A stretch of 30,507 nucleotides of DNA from Thermoanaerobaculia bacterium (GTDB lineage Bacteria; Acidobacteriota; Thermoanaerobaculia; Gp7-AA8), in NCBI GenBank assembly GCA_036382495.1, contig DASVHS010000314.1, positions 1 to 30,507 of the forward strand. The letters are read 5' to 3'. The position numbers were made by a program, and so were the translations under genes. Position 1 is the stretch's first letter; every line of letters starts with the position of its first letter. Below the pieces are notes generated by a model. The model was not told where the DNA came from. It made no database searches and saw only the letters and a list, made by a program, of their open reading frames with translations. This document shows positions 3,411 through 8,048 of the stretch, piece after piece.

Positions 3411-3433
3411 CGCATTCCATTCGCAATTGCATG

Positions 3434-3465
3434 AAAGCCCCCGGAGCTCCGGGGGCTTTTCTTTT
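3434..3465 (+). terminator. Intrinsic terminator
   Basis: Perfect 26-bp palindrome aaagcccccggag|ctccgggggcttt followed by tctttt. Confidence 0.9.
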
Positions 3466-3481
3466 GCACAAAGCTGACTTC

Positions 3482-5707
3482 ATGAGTCGTCTGTCCCTGG
3501 CAGTTCTTGCTCTCGCTCTCGCCGCGTGCGCGAGCGCGCCTCCGCAGAAAAGTGGACGACTGGCGCCCCCGCCTGTCCGGACGGTTCCGCCAGTGCAGAC
3601 AGGCCAGGCGCCTGTCCTCCACCGTCTCACGCCAGTGGCCACGGCAGCGCGCACGATCGCCGAGCCACGCATCCGCGTCGGACTCCTGAGCGATCAGCCC
3701 GAGATGGAGTTCGAGCGCGTTCCCGGCGGGTACTACATCGTCAGCGACGCCGGCCCGTCGATCATCAATCGTGGATTCACGGCGAACCCGCCGCTCGCCG
3801 AAGCCGAAGTGCGGTATGCCGTGCAGGTGAGCGCGATCTCCGACATGAACAGCGTCGACGCGCTCGTTCAGAAACTTCATCAGGACACGAAGCAGCCGGT
3901 CGACACGATGTTCGACGCTGCGTCGGGAATCTATCGGGTGATCGTCGGAGACTTTCGCGATCAGCAATCGGCAACGCCACTCAAGGCCGATCTGGCCGCG
4001 CGCGGCTACGCCGGGACGCTCCCCGTCGTCCGTCGTCCCTCCGATCAGCCGTTCGAAAAATTGCACCGCATCGTCGACGATGAAGGCGACAGCTACACGA
4101 TCCGCGGCGACTCGATCCTGATCATGCCCGTGTCCGCCGACACGATCACGATCGGGGACAAGCCGTATCGCACCGCCGCGCGGCTTTTCATCAACTCACG
4201 CGGTCTCTACAACGTCATCAACGAATTGAACATCGAGGACTACCTCCTCGGCGTCGTGCCGGCGGAGATGGGTCCGAAAATATTCGACGAGGTCGAGGCG
4301 CTGAAGGCCCAGGCCGTCGCGGCACGAACGTACGCCGCACGCAACATGCGCGGCTTCATCAACGAAGGCTACGACATCTGTCCCGGCCCGGCTTGTCAGG
4401 CCTACAACGGTTTCTCCGGTGAGGACGATCTCAGCACGCAGGCCGTGAAGGCGACCGCGGGCCAGGTCCTCACGTACCAGGGCAAATTGATCGACGCCCT
4501 GTACACGTCGACGTGCGGCGGCGAGACGAGCGATGTCGGCACGATGTTCCCCGGCCGCACCGATCCGTATCTCAAGCGCGCACGCTGCGTCGAGCTCGAC
4601 ATGGTCACGATCGCGGGACGCGCCGACAGCGGCATCCTCACCGAGCAGCAGGCGAGCGCGCGTATGTTCGCGACGCTTGCCAGTCTCCCCGAGCAGCCGG
4701 TGAGCTGGGCCGCGCCCGACGTCGAGCGCGCGGTCCTCGAAGCCCAGCGGCTCCTGGGCGCGCCGGAGACCGACCTTCCGAAGCCGGTCTCCAGCCGGCG
4801 CGGCGACGTGCTGCGCTATCTCGCGTCGCTGCTGCAGCTCGACAAACATGCGCGTGTCACAACGCTGCCCGAAGATCGAAAGTACTTCTTTCCGCAGACG
4901 GCGACGCCGGAACAGCAGGAGTACCTGGCCGCCGCGTTTCTCATGAAGTTCGGCATTCTTCCCGCGCAGGAAATCGATCGCGCCGATCTCAACGCGGCGA
5001 TGCCCCGCGACGAGCTTTACGCGCTGCTCTTTTCCTGGCTGCGCGAGCACACCGCGATCCAGGAGTCGACGGGAAAGATTCTCACGCTGAGCGGCCGGAC
5101 GGTCACGTTGAAGGCGGAAGGAAAGTCACAGAAATTCACACTTCCCGACCGCATCCCGATCTTTCGCCGCCTCGGCGATCGCCTGCAGGAGTACGCGCAG
5201 GTTCCGGTGACGATCGGCGACCGCGCGTTCGTCTACGTCGGCTTCAACAAGGCTTCCCTGGCGATGATCGTCCAGGCGAATCTCGACGGTGCGTCATTCG
5301 ACCGCACGTCGAGCTTCGCGAACTGGACGCGCAGCTATCGCGCCGAAGATCTCGTGCCTGTCATCAATCGGCGGAATCCGATTCAGCAGCTGATCGACAT
5401 CCGTCCGGTGACCGTCGACGCGTCGCAGCGCATCGCCGAGCTCGAAGTCACGGCGGAAGGGGGACGCAAATTCATGTTGCGTGGACTTCCGATCCGCTGG
5501 TCGCTCAACGTCCCGGACAACCTCTTCGTCTACGAGAAGACGAAAGATCCCGACGGAATGGACCGCTACACGTTCTTCGGCAAAGGGTGGGGCCACGGCA
5601 TCGGCTTCTGCCAGGTCGGCTCGTACGGCATGGCGTTCCGCGGCTGGACCTACGATCAGATCCTGAAGCACTACTACACCGGAGTGGAGATCGTGCCGAT
5701 GCGTTAA
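3482..5707 (+). CDS. SpoIID/LytB-domain lipoprotein with a SPOR domain (putative peptidoglycan lytic transglycosylase)
   Basis: Lipobox LAAC; SPOR-like YAVQV...YRVIVGDF; EDYLLGVVPAEM, EALKAQAVAARTY, STCGG and GWGHGIGFCQVG...ILKHYY motifs. Start moved to 3482 because 3431 lies in the terminator. Confidence 0.9.
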   Translation: MSRLSLAVLALALAACASAPPQKSGRLAPPPVRTVPPVQTGQAPVLHRLTPVATAARTIAEPRIRVGLLSDQPEMEFERVPGGYYIVSDAGPSIINRGFTANPPLAEAEVRYAVQVSAISDMNSVDALVQKLHQDTKQPVDTMFDAASGIYRVIVGDFRDQQSATPLKADLAARGYAGTLPVVRRPSDQPFEKLHRIVDDEGDSYTIRGDSILIMPVSADTITIGDKPYRTAARLFINSRGLYNVINELNIEDYLLGVVPAEMGPKIFDEVEALKAQAVAARTYAARNMRGFINEGYDICPGPACQAYNGFSGEDDLSTQAVKATAGQVLTYQGKLIDALYTSTCGGETSDVGTMFPGRTDPYLKRARCVELDMVTIAGRADSGILTEQQASARMFATLASLPEQPVSWAAPDVERAVLEAQRLLGAPETDLPKPVSSRRGDVLRYLASLLQLDKHARVTTLPEDRKYFFPQTATPEQQEYLAAAFLMKFGILPAQEIDRADLNAAMPRDELYALLFSWLREHTAIQESTGKILTLSGRTVTLKAEGKSQKFTLPDRIPIFRRLGDRLQEYAQVPVTIGDRAFVYVGFNKASLAMIVQANLDGASFDRTSSFANWTRSYRAEDLVPVINRRNPIQQLIDIRPVTVDASQRIAELEVTAEGGRKFMLRGLPIRWSLNVPDNLFVYEKTKDPDGMDRYTFFGKGWGHGIGFCQVGSYGMAFRGWTYDQILKHYYTGVEIVPMR

Positions 5708-5784
5708 AACAGAGGGCAGAGCGCAGAGCGCAGATGGACGACTTCAGTCTCCTGCGCTCTGCGCACTGCCCTCCGCGCTCTGTT
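5708..5784. repeat. Palindromic heptamer element, CAGAGSG family, between convergent genes
   Basis: cagaggg cagagcg cagagcg ... cgctctg cgcactg ccctccg cgctctg. Confidence 0.95.
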
Positions 5785-5788
5785 CTTA

Positions 5789-6550
5789 TTAAGGTTCAGC
5801 TCCGAACACGAGCGTTGCCAGCGCCACGGCGACGCGGCGATCGAGCGTCGCATTCGAGGAGAGATCGAGGTAGTCCGCTTCGCCGGCCTGGTCGGGACGG
5901 CGGACGATCACTCCGGACGCGACGCCCTGGTGATAGATGCGGATGTTGGCCTCGCGCGTACGATTGAACTTGCCGATGAACTTCCGGACGATCGCGCGCC
6001 AGAACGATTCTTCGACGGCGAACGCGGCCCCGCGCTGATCGGCGGGCGAGTCGATCGACCAGCTGTTGCGCCCGAGTCGCGACAGTACGTTGCGTCCGAG
6101 GAGAGCGATGGTTGTGCCGTCGGGAGTTTTGACGGCGTACGACGTGCGCGGAAACGCGACACGCGATTGTTGCGTGATCAGCAGCGCGGGAGTCTCGTCT
6201 TCGTACAGCGTCACACGCGTTCGCGGGACGAGCGCGGCGATGAACCCCGAGAAGCCGAAGCCGAGGATGAGTGCGAGAACGGCGGCGCCGGGGTGGTGTT
6301 CGGCGAGGAGGAACAGCGTCGCGGCGATACCCGCAACGAGCACGATGCCGGCGACGAGCGCGGCGACGATCGTGACGATCGAGGCGAAGCCGCGGTAGGT
6401 GAGCAGCACCTGGCCGTCGCTGTCGCGGATGTGCGCCGTCTCGGCCGCGGGCACGCCGCTCTCGAACGAGAACCGCGTGCTGTTGAATGCACGCTGCGGA
6501 TGCGAGGGCTTGTCGGCCGGCGCGGTGATCCTCCGCTCGAGCGGGTCCAC
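5789..6550 (-). CDS. Membrane protein with two TM helices and a LURP-one/scramblase-like C-terminal domain; probably the C-terminal part of the upstream FHA gene
   Basis: Two hydrophobic helices, then a beta-rich region ending LDRRVAVALATLV. The frame stays open upstream to 6664, through the A10 tract. Confidence 0.75.
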   Translation of the reverse strand: MDPLERRITAPADKPSHPQRAFNSTRFSFESGVPAAETAHIRDSDGQVLLTYRGFASIVTIVAALVAGIVLVAGIAATLFLLAEHHPGAAVLALILGFGFSGFIAALVPRTRVTLYEDETPALLITQQSRVAFPRTSYAVKTPDGTTIALLGRNVLSRLGRNSWSIDSPADQRGAAFAVEESFWRAIVRKFIGKFNRTREANIRIYHQGVASGVIVRRPDQAGEADYLDLSSNATLDRRVAVALATLVFGAEP

Positions 6551-6597
6551 TGGATGGAACTCCTCAGTGGGAGGCTCGACAGGCTGGTCGTCAGGAG

Positions 6598-7047
6598 CTA
6601 TTCCGATTTTTTTTTTACGTCGTCGCGAACCTTCTCGTGGGGAAGCGTCTGAGCGGAGACTTTTTCATGCGACGCCGTGGGTAGGTTCTCGACCGGCTGC
6701 TGTGCCGGCGCACCCAGCTCCATTCCTTCGCTTCCGGGCGCGTCCGCCTCTGTCGGTAACTCCTCCGAGAACCGGCCGTAGCTGTTGCCCATGCGCAGTT
6801 TGCCGCCGTGAGTGAGAGGAGCGACGCGGACTCGCTTGCCGTTGATGTAGGTCCCGTTCGCGCTGGCGAGATCGTGGAGGACGAAGAATCCGCGCTCGAA
6901 CACGATCTCGGCGTGGTGGCGCGAAACCTTCGGGTCGCGAAGGATGATGTCGTTGCCGGGGTCCCGGCCGACCGTGAACGGCCGGTGGGTCTGGAGCCTG
7001 TAGCTTTTCTCCGTCCCGTCCAGGCCGACGAAGAAGATCTTCGCCAT
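6598..7047 (-). CDS. FHA-domain protein that ends just after an A10 tract
   Basis: GRDPGND, SRHHAEI and SANGTYING conserved FHA motifs; TAGAAT 9 nt upstream of the ATG. Confidence 0.92.
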   Translation of the reverse strand: MAKIFFVGLDGTEKSYRLQTHRPFTVGRDPGNDIILRDPKVSRHHAEIVFERGFFVLHDLASANGTYINGKRVRVAPLTHGGKLRMGNSYGRFSEELPTEADAPGSEGMELGAPAQQPVENLPTASHEKVSAQTLPHEKVRDDVKKKSE

Positions 7048-7059
7048 CAGTTCTGAATT

Positions 7060-7470
7060 CTAGCCTACTCGGCCGTCCACGCCTTCGGCGGTCCGCCGTG
7101 GGCGTTGAATGTGCTCGACGAGGTCGTCGATGGAAACCGGCTTTGTCAGCCAGCACTGGACGCGCGAGTCGACCGTGCCCTCCGGCGGCGGGGGCTGGCC
7201 GCTGATCACGATGACGGTGACGTCGTCATCGTGACCGAGCCGCGACAGGACCTCGCCGCCGTCCATGAGCGGCATGAGCCAGTCGAGGAGGATGACATCG
7301 GGCTTCTCGCCGCTCGAGATCCGCTCGACGGCTTCGGCTCCGTTCGCGGCGAGCTTGACCTCGAAGCCACGCTGGTTGAGGCCGATCGCGTAGAGGCGGC
7401 GAACATCGGCGTCGTCCTCGACGATGAGGATTTTGGGCCTGCTCACCCGTGACATTTGTGCAGGTTCCAT
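7060..7470 (-). CDS. Stand-alone response regulator receiver (CheY-like); start uncertain (7470, 7455 or 7446)
   Basis: [19 protein letters not shown] and LTKP motifs. Confidence 0.9.
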
Positions 7471-7511
7471 GCGCAGGAGTCGTGCTATTCTCCCGCGACT
7501 CTCGCGTAGCC

Positions 7512-8048
7512 ATGAACGTTAAGAAACGACTTCTCGATGCGCCACGGATGCACCGCGCCATCCGTCGCATGGCGATCGAGGTCGTCGAGCGCAACCGCGG
7601 GATCAACGACCTCATCATTGTCGGCATTCGCAGCCGTGGTGTTCCGATCGGCGAGCGGATGGCGAAAGAGATCAGTGAGATGGAGGGAGCGCCGGTCCCG
7701 TTCGGCATCCTCGACATCACGCTCTACCGCGACGACCTGACGACAATTGCGCCGCAGCCGGTGGTCAAGCCGACAAAACTTCCCGAGCCGATCGACGACA
7801 AGATCGTCGTGCTCGTCGACGACGTTCTCTACACGGGCCGCACGGTCCGCGCCGCGCTCGACGCGCTCATCGACTTCGGCCGTCCCAAGGCGGTGCAGCT
7901 CGCGGTCCTCATCGACCGCGGCCATCGCGAGCTGCCGATCCACGCCGACGTGATCGGCAAAACCGTTCCCACCGACGCGAACGAAGTGATCAAGGTGAGG
8001 CTGGTGGAGACTGATGGCGAGGATGAAGTTCTCATCATGGAGAAGTAG
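7512..8048 (+). CDS. pyrR: Bifunctional pyrimidine regulatory protein / uracil phosphoribosyltransferase PyrR
   Basis: [28 protein letters not shown] and DRGHRELPI motifs. Start moved to ATG 7512; extended -10 TGcTATTCT at 7483-7491. Confidence 0.96.

Follow-up and report, generated by a model that had tools for sequence, protein, structure and literature searches.

A run of ten adenines on the minus strand of the 30.5-kb stretch of Thermoanaerobaculia DNA analysed here (the window) separates an FHA-domain gene from a membrane-protein frame, and with high confidence it is a site of programmed recoding, acting at the level of transcription or of translation. The run and its out-of-frame layout are kept in about 100 species of soil Acidobacteriota. 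Retention on this scale of a run that splits the FHA domain from the membrane half implies a genuine programmed frameshift site. One gene most likely yields two proteins, one short and soluble, the other long and membrane-anchored. That the shift occurs during transcription, that both products function and what their roles are is inferred; for these uncultured organisms there are no RNA or protein data, and none on efficiency. The features of the locus, in window coordinates, are as follows.

6607..6616, minus strand: slippery A10 run (GTA AAA AAA AAA), the recoding site, read from the sequence, shuffles and relatives.
6598..6600, minus strand: TAG stop of frame 0, two codons past the run.
6598..7047, minus strand: frame-0 ORF for a 149-aa FHA protein ending VKKKSE-TAG, the product of standard decoding.
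5789..6607, minus strand: shifted-frame (-1) ORF from ATC at 6607–6605 to the TAA stop at 5791–5789, 272 residues.
6557..6574, minus strand: linker motif PPTEEF, read in the shifted frame and ahead of GTG 6550.
6548..6565, minus strand: possible internal start, GAGGAG (6565–6560) with GTG 6550, not conserved.
6233..6379, minus strand: predicted transmembrane helical hairpin, residues 80–128 of the AlphaFold2 model of the 275-aa C-terminal part.
5801..6475, minus strand: predicted Tubby/LOR/scramblase-like beta-barrel with a central C-terminal helix, broken by the transmembrane hairpin.
7060..7470, minus strand: stand-alone response-regulator receiver gene (Pfam Response_reg, E 2.8e-19).
5705..5784, no strand assigned: long perfect hairpin between convergent genes, read from the sequence.

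The run occupies 6616–6607 in the context ...GAC GAC GTA AAA AAA AAA TCG GAA TAG, where the first-pass annotation had placed it. A -1 shift or one extra A was said to join the FHA ORF to the ORF at 5789–6550 in a 419-aa protein, and the frames bear this out. The -1 frame is free of stops from 6664 down to the stop at 5789–5791, entry at the run reads ...VKKK-IGIAPDDQPVEPPTEEF..., and the product consists of 147 + 272 residues. Two similar linker strings that had also been reported, QQPVENLPT ahead of the run and DQPVEPPT beyond it, are both present, as is the GAGGAG 9 nt upstream of GTG 6550. A 10-A run was considered out of place in GC-rich DNA, and rightly: it is the sole run of nine or more A or T in the window, where shuffles expect 0.02. 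The source genome (3.89 Mb, 62.5% GC) has four such runs in all, the A10 among them, and AAA makes up only 31% of its Lys codons. A rare codon (CTA, TTA or GTA) lies directly before the run.

Of the 80 genomes of the closest species (class Thermoanaerobaculia), 79 have A9 or A10 at the junction and a downstream ORF that is out of frame. The layout is -1 in 71 of these and +1 in 8. A comparison of orthologues for a fused ORF versus an A-run with a stop had been proposed beforehand, and its outcome is that the A-run with a stop is kept. The 80 loci were gathered by FHA peptide patterns that characterize the clade with the run, so the count describes that clade and not the whole family; an unbiased family sample has the run in 18 of the 23 genomes with a match. 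Among loci L001–L020 (L001 is the window's own, and the relatives represent about 19 genera), 19 of 20 have A9 or A10 at the junction. The run in relatives is A9, A10 or once A11, and never shorter than nine. In each of 27 independent metagenome contigs that share the run-GCGGAGTAG context the length is exactly A10, with no A8 and no A11, and the same layout recurs across assemblies from many studies, assemblers and platforms. The frame-0 stop is 0–2 codons from the run in 76 of 80 loci, and this, together with retention of the run in two in-frame variants (L037 and P0001, see below), is counted as evidence that both isoforms may matter.

Two groups of sequences were set aside. Loci L063 and L103, with A9 in a +1 layout, are not accepted as real variants; they come from nanopore MAGs and their flanks are identical to those of Illumina A10 loci, which points to a nanopore homopolymer undercall. 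Nanopore MAGs miscall the run. Open frames of 379–405 aa in same-genus relatives are not in-frame fusions and represent a GC-rich alternative frame of the FHA gene that stays open.

The shifted frame beyond the run contains a linker motif with the family consensus P-x-T-E-P-[L/I/F], present in strict form in 66 of 80 loci and in looser forms in most others. The TEP-type motif is 5–20 codons past the run, upstream of any possible restart. Since the motif precedes GTG 6550, it can be translated only by entry at the run. Protein similarity of the shifted frame also extends back to the run (from query residues 1–11 of the stop-to-stop frame), and the downstream frame is open, with protein-level conservation to about 30% identity. 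These comparisons establish, at the level of sequence, that the shifted frame is under coding constraint. The tryptic peptide IGIAPDDQPVEPPTEEFHPVDPLER lies between the run and GTG 6550, and its source can only be the shifted frame. Many FHA domains prefer a hydrophobic residue at +3, as is present in TEP[L/I/F].

A search in the family and order reveals eight homologues at a greater distance, of which five belong to the same GTDB family; in all eight, the FHA domain and the C-terminal part form a single in-frame ORF. These are 375–449 aa in length, lack the run and have Lys pairs written AAG AAG. All 68 run-bearing genes cluster in a tree with support of 100/99. As judged from this phylogeny, the site has a single ancient origin, and the homologues identify the in-frame FHA–membrane fusion as the ancestral architecture. 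A9 and A10 have interchanged at least 8 times, with changes in adjacent bases that preserve the -1 layout. A six-species subclade keeps A10 in a +1 layout, which requires one A fewer. L037 has A11 with the run in frame and an intact 428-aa ORF, and P0001 has A10 in frame in an ORF of 552 aa; the neighbouring frame stops at once in both. The fused reading agrees with the single-ORF homologues and with these two variants. The suggestion made earlier, that the cell could produce both a soluble FHA protein and a membrane-anchored fusion, is thus upheld by the conserved run and layout, the single-ORF homologues and the conserved shifted-frame linker.

The FHA half matches Pfam FHA (PF00498) at residues 25–87 with an E of 1.4e-20 and 73.9 bits, against a gathering cut-off of 20.7. 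An alignment of 19 genera-level relatives shows residues 1–100 to be nearly invariant. The canonical N-terminal FHA domain is shared with FhaB/FipA, GarA/OdhI and TagH; NCBIfam gives weak FhaB, OdhI and TagH matches, and the protein reaches the cut-off of no named FHA family.

The C-terminal part has no meaningful match in Pfam or NCBIfam, only weak ones driven by the transmembrane segment. Its AlphaFold2 model (pLDDT 80.6 and pTM 0.74 overall) displays two transmembrane helices at residues 80–105 and 109–128 (pLDDT about 90–97), barrel strands at 48–75 and 134–252 and a helix at 260–272. VIA-align superposes 2q4m_A (Z 12.4, 141 residues aligned) and Tubby, 1i7e_A (Z 11.7, 159 aligned), and covers residues 38–275. 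A comparison with AFDB gives a DUF3137 protein at E 6e-13 and TM 0.64, and many scramblases are also matched. A Foldseek search of the PDB with the C-terminal part returned nothing at E <= 0.001, with Tubby and LOR as the best-ranked entries. A Tubby C-terminal-like fold, i.e., a closed barrel around a C-terminal hydrophobic helix, is therefore proposed from predicted structure only. Tubby and LOR structures and AFDB models of DUF3137 superpose on the barrel without a Pfam sequence match; the DUF3137 profile matches neither the window protein nor any of 17 aligned members, even at E <= 1, and the likeness of the modeled C-terminal part to DUF3137 is purely structural. No description of an FHA domain combined with a transmembrane hairpin and a Tubby-like barrel was found in the literature.

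The receiver gene is directly upstream of the FHA gene, with its stop 12 nt ahead of the FHA ATG. ORFs that share the receiver C-terminus (..LTKP(V/I)..) are upstream of the FHA gene in L005, L013, L014, L015, L019 and L020, and the two genes are probable operon partners. The hairpin at 5705..5784 is probably a bidirectional terminator that closes the gene; an Rfam scan gave only spurious miRNA-model matches to it. A promoter scan of positions 5500–7800 found none.

The proposed mechanism is as follows. Standard decoding of an A10 mRNA would end two codons past the run and give the 149-aa soluble FHA protein, a putative phosphothreonine-binding protein. RNA polymerase realigning on the T10 template would give some transcripts one extra A. 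These would be read from the FHA frame through a Pro/Glu-rich linker into the transmembrane hairpin and the Tubby/scramblase-like barrel, and the slipped product would be a 419-aa membrane-anchored FHA protein with the ancestral architecture. How much of the FHA module is free and how much is membrane-tethered would then be set by the run, with a single promoter. That the short product has a function is inferred solely from the layout.

RNA-polymerase slippage is favored as the mechanism, if only with moderate confidence, and a ribosomal -1 shift is its rival; sequence alone cannot separate the two. Slippage is considered likeliest because there is no conserved stimulatory structure or fixed SD-like site and the run is never shorter than nine. 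The properties of programmed slippage that can be read from DNA are satisfied: at least nine A's at the junction of overlapping ORFs, conservation of the run and the ORF layout, and a fused product that matches homologues. Conservation of ORF organisation and run among non-identical homologues is a published criterion for a slippage site, and in many genomes selection against RNA-polymerase slippage is evident from a run length of 9 (PMC1088944). If recoding were translational, the mRNA would be a faithful A10 copy on which some ribosomes shift -1 at A_AAA_AAA or slide on AAA codons. This has considerable support and remains possible, although unlikely: the heptamer (X_XXY_YYZ) is correctly phased in the window and in the 71 -1-layout loci, E. 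coli dnaX uses A_AAA_AAG (PMC3711429), E. coli ribosomes are known to slide on poly(A) Lys codons (PMC4363877), and the comparative evidence for recoding fits equally well. However, a ribosomal shift would need no more than an A7 heptamer, yet every genome has at least nine A's, and since slippage at that length is expected of any bacterial RNA polymerase (PMC1088944), transcript heterogeneity would be hard to avoid. The heptamer is out of phase in the 8 +1-layout loci. Six species need +1 and not -1 at the same A10, and this subclade fits slippage in that slippage gives insertions and deletions alike. No stimulator of a ribosomal shift is conserved. Over 81 loci, the downstream 70 nt fold no more stably than shuffled sequence (mean z +0.35, with 3.7% of loci below -2), upstream SD-like motifs are absent or variably spaced across loci with none at a fixed distance, and an Rfam scan found no frameshift element. 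The absence of stimulators is weak evidence, as it rests on poor linker alignments; moreover, stimulators are common but not obligatory, so their absence lowers the case for a ribosomal site but does not exclude it.

Three other explanations leave recoding out altogether. The first-pass annotation had raised a DNA-level phase-variation switch, in which slipped-strand mispairing toggles the gene between a split state (OFF, short product) and a fused one (ON). Homopolymer runs are classic contingency loci (PMC3711429), and one genome in 80 (L037, A11) does have an intact ORF. A switch should nevertheless leave mixed ON and OFF lengths, whereas the consensus length is out of frame in 79 of 80 species and all the metagenome contigs, which come from many samples, have A10; judged from consensus sequences, the DNA has an essentially constant run length. 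A9 species differ from A10 species not in length alone but also in compensating flank changes, and the two A9 outliers are nanopore MAGs beside near-identical Illumina A10 genomes. Phase variation is thus very improbable. The same holds for two separate genes, with the FHA gene ending at TAG 6598, the membrane protein starting at GTG 6550 by means of the GAGGAG, and the run incidental. The GAGGAG is suitably placed in the window species, and public annotations give the C-terminal part as a separate hypothetical protein of 235–300 aa. The start is not conserved, however. GTG 6550 aligns with gaps or non-start codons in relatives, the linkers of four same-genus loci (L029–L032) have no start codon, 22 of 71 linkers lack any ATG, GTG or TTG, and a start accompanied by an SD-like motif occurs in only 7. 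The restart previously offered as an alternative is therefore species-specific, although independent initiation of a shorter membrane protein there, in part, in the window species cannot be excluded. In addition, the conserved linker motif and protein similarity are upstream of any start, distant homologues are single ORFs, and a lineage of 62.5% GC would not retain an A10 that was merely incidental. The least credible explanation is an artefact or decay, in which sequencing or assembly got the homopolymer wrong or a frameshift recently inactivated the gene and left a pseudogene. The MAG containing the window is fragmented (723 contigs, 89.9% complete), and homopolymer errors are real, as the two nanopore MAGs show. 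Against an assembly error, which had been recognized as a concern, independent assemblies agree on A10 and the layout is identical across studies, assemblers and platforms; the open, conserved downstream frame and the single ancient origin of the site also speak against an artefact or decay.

Several known systems resemble the FHA gene. In Citrobacter rodentium and Yersinia pseudotuberculosis, tssM undergoes transcriptional frameshifting, and the Citrobacter A11 gives two length variants that are both required (PMC4256274). As in the FHA gene, a poly-A run precedes a premature stop in a non-mobile chromosomal gene and the default product is short; A's added by the polymerase restore the frame, and short and full-length proteins are made in a ratio that matters (PMC4256274), as is proposed here. 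The tssM run is A11 and occurs in few enterobacterial strains, whereas the FHA site is A9/A10 in about 100 species of an acidobacterial family. tssM encodes another protein and has been studied experimentally, whereas the FHA–Tubby-like membrane protein is without experimental data. The dnaX tau and gamma products arise by transcriptional slippage in Thermus thermophilus (A9) and Chlorobi (A10) and by a ribosomal -1 shift in E. coli, so that dnaX homologues use both solutions (PMC3711429). As is proposed for the FHA gene, the A-run gives two products with different C-termini in a set ratio, and some Chlorobi dnaX genes have a two-ORF layout with 10 A's, as at the FHA site (PMC3711429). The classic dnaX shift leads to the shorter product, whereas the shift at the FHA site leads to the longer one. 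In E. coli dnaX the shift is stimulated by an SD-like element and a hairpin, neither of which is detectable at the FHA site.

E. coli copA/copA(Z) has a programmed -1 ribosomal frameshift at a slippery site, with an mRNA pseudoknot, and the shift gives the short form. Like the FHA gene, it is a membrane-protein gene that also makes a small soluble N-terminal domain protein, but the direction is opposite, as the shift at the FHA site gives the long form. In Buchnera and Blochmannia, poly-A frameshifts are reportedly maintained over evolution in several genes per genome, where the full-length protein is said to depend on slippage. These insect endosymbionts have AT-rich, reduced genomes under relaxed selection. 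Their poly-A cases resemble the DUF374 site described below and differ in setting from a free-living soil lineage of 62.5% GC. Conserved poly(A) frameshifts with rescue by polymerase infidelity in the two genera are cited in PMC5009743.

Two more A10 sites are kept in the same lineage, one in a DUF374 and one in a DUF4388 gene, which are unrelated and have no shared flanks; their retention is counted in favor of slippage at transcription. A10 runs (rarely A9 or A11) are thus present in at least three unrelated chromosomal genes of this acidobacterial family, in which there are about 4–10 runs of nine or more per genome. The enzyme-like DUF374 gene is split within a conserved region, just past the Pfam DUF374 match, so that its only full-length product would need the shift. 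In the DUF4388 gene the run is in frame and a slipped product would be truncated; in the FHA–Tubby gene, by contrast, the default product is short and the slipped product would be long. It may tentatively be suggested that the FHA site belongs to a small slippage regulon in a free-living, GC-rich acidobacterial family.

Conserved recoding is rare in non-mobile bacterial chromosomal genes, and in a survey of 108 genomes a conserved 9A pattern was seen in a single non-IS candidate (PMC1088944). The literature on transcriptional slippage or frameshifting with an FHA domain, in Acidobacteria or in Thermoanaerobaculia yielded no report of the site, and the phylum has almost no recoding data. The family provides natural controls in its in-frame ancestors, compensated A9/A10 changes, the +1-layout subclade and the in-frame variants that retain the run. 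With these and its conservation in about 100 species, the site is among the better comparative cases for functional poly-A slippage. In hundreds of public gene calls the gene is broken up, with one piece called as an FHA protein and the other as a 'hypothetical protein'; the two should be merged and annotated as one recoded gene. The findings also point to further slippage sites in the lineage. If the regulon is real, poly-A slippage would be a lineage-wide expression device, with a product ratio either fixed or physiologically tunable, and gene output could be coupled to the behaviour of RNA polymerase (NTP pools, temperature, elongation factors). For the FHA gene itself, the layout suggests a mode of signalling in which the balance between a free and a membrane-tethered phosphothreonine reader is set from a single promoter.

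The A10 run is at positions 6616–6607 of the minus strand, where the sequence as read directly is GAC GAC GTA AAA AAA AAA TCG GAA TAG. No other A/T run of at least 9 occurs in the window (shuffled sequences would give 0.02), and only four such runs, this one included, are found in the 3.89-Mb, 62.5% GC genome; the genome-wide counts are 19 runs of length 8, one of length 9 and three of length 10. The source is a fragmented MAG (723 contigs, 89.9% complete), and related records are mostly soil MAGs. The features at the site are:

7047–6598, minus strand: FHA ORF, 149 aa (Pfam FHA, E 1.4e-20)
6664–5789, minus strand: -1 frame, uninterrupted until the stop at 5789, with GTG 6550 as its first start codon
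6574–6557, minus strand: linker motif PPTEEF, in the shifted frame upstream of GTG 6550
12 nt upstream of the FHA gene: receiver-domain gene (ORF reading and Pfam)

The 419-aa fusion proposed in the first-pass annotation is reproduced by ORF reading, as a -1 shift or one added A gives VKKK-IGIAPDD... The receiver-domain gene is seen again upstream of the FHA gene in relatives. At the other end, a long and near-perfect hairpin (5705–5784) lies between a convergent SpoIID/SPOR-like gene (3431–5707) and the end of the recoded gene (5789); Rfam gives only spurious miRNA-model matches to it.

Relatives were found with the stop-to-stop -1-frame product as the query, and the loci were then read. Nineteen of 20 loci (L001–L020, the window's own and relatives from about 19 genera) have A9 or A10 at the end of the FHA ORF, which terminates as KKK plus 0–3 residues and a stop, with the membrane/Tubby-like C-terminal portion (C-part) in another frame. 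The orthologue comparison that the annotation had suggested, a fused ORF versus an A-run kept with a stop, thus comes out for the A-run and frame-0 stop in these 19. The 80 closest species genomes display A10 with the C-part in the -1 frame (48 loci), A9/-1 (23), A10/+1 (6) and A9/+1 (2); the 80th locus, L037, has an in-frame A11 and encodes 428 aa. These counts describe the clade, because the loci were retrieved by FHA peptide patterns typical of its run-bearing members. In an unbiased family sample the run is present in 18 of the 23 genomes having a match. A metagenome scan with the pattern T-A8-N(0-3)-GCGGAGTAG gives 27 contigs whose GC content and context fit the FHA gene, all with exactly A10; A8 and A9 matches from the scan were dismissed as unrelated AT-rich DNA. 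Long open frames in the same genus were rejected as in-frame fusions: what stays open is the FHA gene's alternative frame.

Public gene calls list the C-part as a separate hypothetical protein of 235–300 aa, but a reading as two genes fails. The linker past the run varies in length and carries a conserved shifted-frame motif, P-x-T-E-P-[L/I/F] (strict form in 66/80 loci). Among 71 evaluable linkers, 22 have no ATG, GTG or TTG and only 7 have a start with a Shine-Dalgarno (SD)-like motif; the conserved shifted-frame peptide can therefore be made only by entry into the frame at the run. GTG 6550, earlier offered as an internal start, is not conserved: relatives have gaps or non-start codons at the aligned position, and the linkers of all four same-genus loci (L029–L032) lack any start codon. 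Moreover, distant homologues are single in-frame ORFs. Eight of these, from the family (G010, G011, G012, G015, G016) and the order (G025–G027), are 375–449 aa, lack the run and encode their lysine pairs as AAG AAG. One of them (L024, from G010:C305) has an unrelated in-frame A9 (I-K-K-N) within the C-part at 1374–1382. A maximum-likelihood tree places all 68 run-bearing C-parts together in a single group (100/99) and separates them from nine run-less C-parts, i.e., the eight full-length genes and a second G015 copy at a contig end, where the C-part alone is readable. This topology fits a single origin of the run. Within the group A9 and A10 have interchanged at least 8 times with the -1 relation retained; the bases after A9 are GTAG or CTAG, and those after A10 are GCGGAGTAG or TAG.

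An artefact common to all of these genomes is not credible because the assemblies span many studies and assemblers. The two A9/+1 loci, L063 (CAWGHO010000001.1) and L103 (OY970380.1), are both from Microflora Danica nanopore MAGs. Their flanks match those of A10 loci from Illumina data, and in the tree one of the two scarcely differs from L089; they are taken as homopolymer undercalls, in which A9 in place of A10 flips the apparent frame relation. Undercalls at sites of this type will make annotation misleading. The near-invariant consensus length in the 80 loci and 27 metagenome contigs also disfavours DNA-level phase variation, the switch raised in the first-pass annotation. Ribosomal -1 shifting, or sliding on AAA codons (PMC4363877), is a possible but rather unlikely source of the long product. 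The 70 nt downstream of the run fold no better than shuffles in 81 loci (mean z +0.35; 3.7% below -2), upstream SD-like motifs are absent or at distances that differ among loci, and Rfam has no frameshift element at the site. Nothing in the sequence suggests a classic stimulated -1 frameshift. A7 would suffice for a ribosomal shift, yet none of the loci examined has fewer than 9 A's; it is at this length that many genomes begin to show selection against RNA-polymerase slippage (PMC1088944). In addition, A10 is retained by six species that form a supported subclade and need the reverse correction, one A fewer; slippage gives both insertions and deletions. The lineage also retains A10 runs in two unrelated genes, without common flanks. 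There are precedents in dnaX, with A9 and A10 (PMC3711429), and in Citrobacter tssM (A11), for which the two length variants are both needed, as is their ratio (PMC4256274). On these grounds transcriptional slippage is preferred, with moderate confidence; the two processes may operate jointly and cannot be told apart from sequence alone.

Both unrelated genes lie outside the window. At G000:C300:3709–3718 (L229:1010–1019), A10 lies shortly after the Pfam DUF374 match of a DUF374 gene (N part, E 4.9e-23). The site reads ...PIAFAAKKK and then, in the -1 frame, KLLSSWDRMVVPWPF..., continuing ..LLSSWDR.. Of 25 genomes, 13 (counting G000) share the A10 and -1 layout. The remaining 12 lack the run and are in frame; a transcript with A11 would have exact colinearity with these homologues. 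One of the 12 (G030) is unpublished, and the claim is independent of it. The DUF4388 gene at G000:C238:180–189 (L230) has an in-frame A10 (LKKKV), which is kept in three other genera as A10 (G005, G009) or in-frame A11 (G007). Both of its alternative frames stop within 0–4 codons, a layout resembling that of dnaX-gamma. Relatives have only about 4–10 runs of at least 9 per genome; other A10 runs, at G005:C65:24373–24382 (L281), G003:C31:34810–34819 and G009:C14:76290–76299, may be additional slippage sites. Full-text literature searches, together with the 2013 GeneTack and 2016 recoding reviews, gave no FHA, Acidobacteria or Thermoanaerobaculia case. The mechanism is known in kind; as far as can be told, the novelty lies in the gene, the lineage and how deeply the site is conserved.

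Pfam profiles give no match to the C-part. An AlphaFold2 model from a 17-sequence alignment (pLDDT 80.6, pTM 0.74) displays a disordered linker, three strands, a hydrophobic helical hairpin (model residues 80–128), then nine further strands and a helix at the C-terminus. Foldseek matches in the PDB are weak, with Tubby and LOR ranked first; VIA-align gives Z 12.4 to At5g01750 (LOR) and Z 11.7 to the Tubby C-domain over residues 38–275, and the AFDB clusters include a DUF3137 protein (E 6e-13) and many scramblases. From the model and these matches, the long product is predicted to be an FHA domain, a linker and a Tubby/scramblase-like barrel interrupted by a transmembrane hairpin, a topology that should put the two soluble parts in the cytoplasm. 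The linker motif T-E-P-[L/I/F] places a hydrophobic residue at +3, which would suit many FHA domains provided the Thr is phosphorylated. Identity in the C-part is only about 50%, whereas FHA residues 1–100 (window 6748–7047) are almost invariant in an alignment of about 19 genera; so strong a constraint is unusual for an FHA module.

Of 80 loci, 76 have the frame-0 stop 0–2 codons from the run. The run is retained in frame in L037 (DATLFB010000050.1; A11, 428 aa) and in a metagenomic protein, P0001 (L286, JGI Ga0526447_010017; A10, 552 aa), which has a much longer linker and reads GAT GTA AAA AAA AAA TTA GAG. A change of one base in run length leads to an immediate stop in both. In these two lineages the default and slipped products seem to have been swapped with the run kept, which indirectly supports the short FHA protein as a genuine product.
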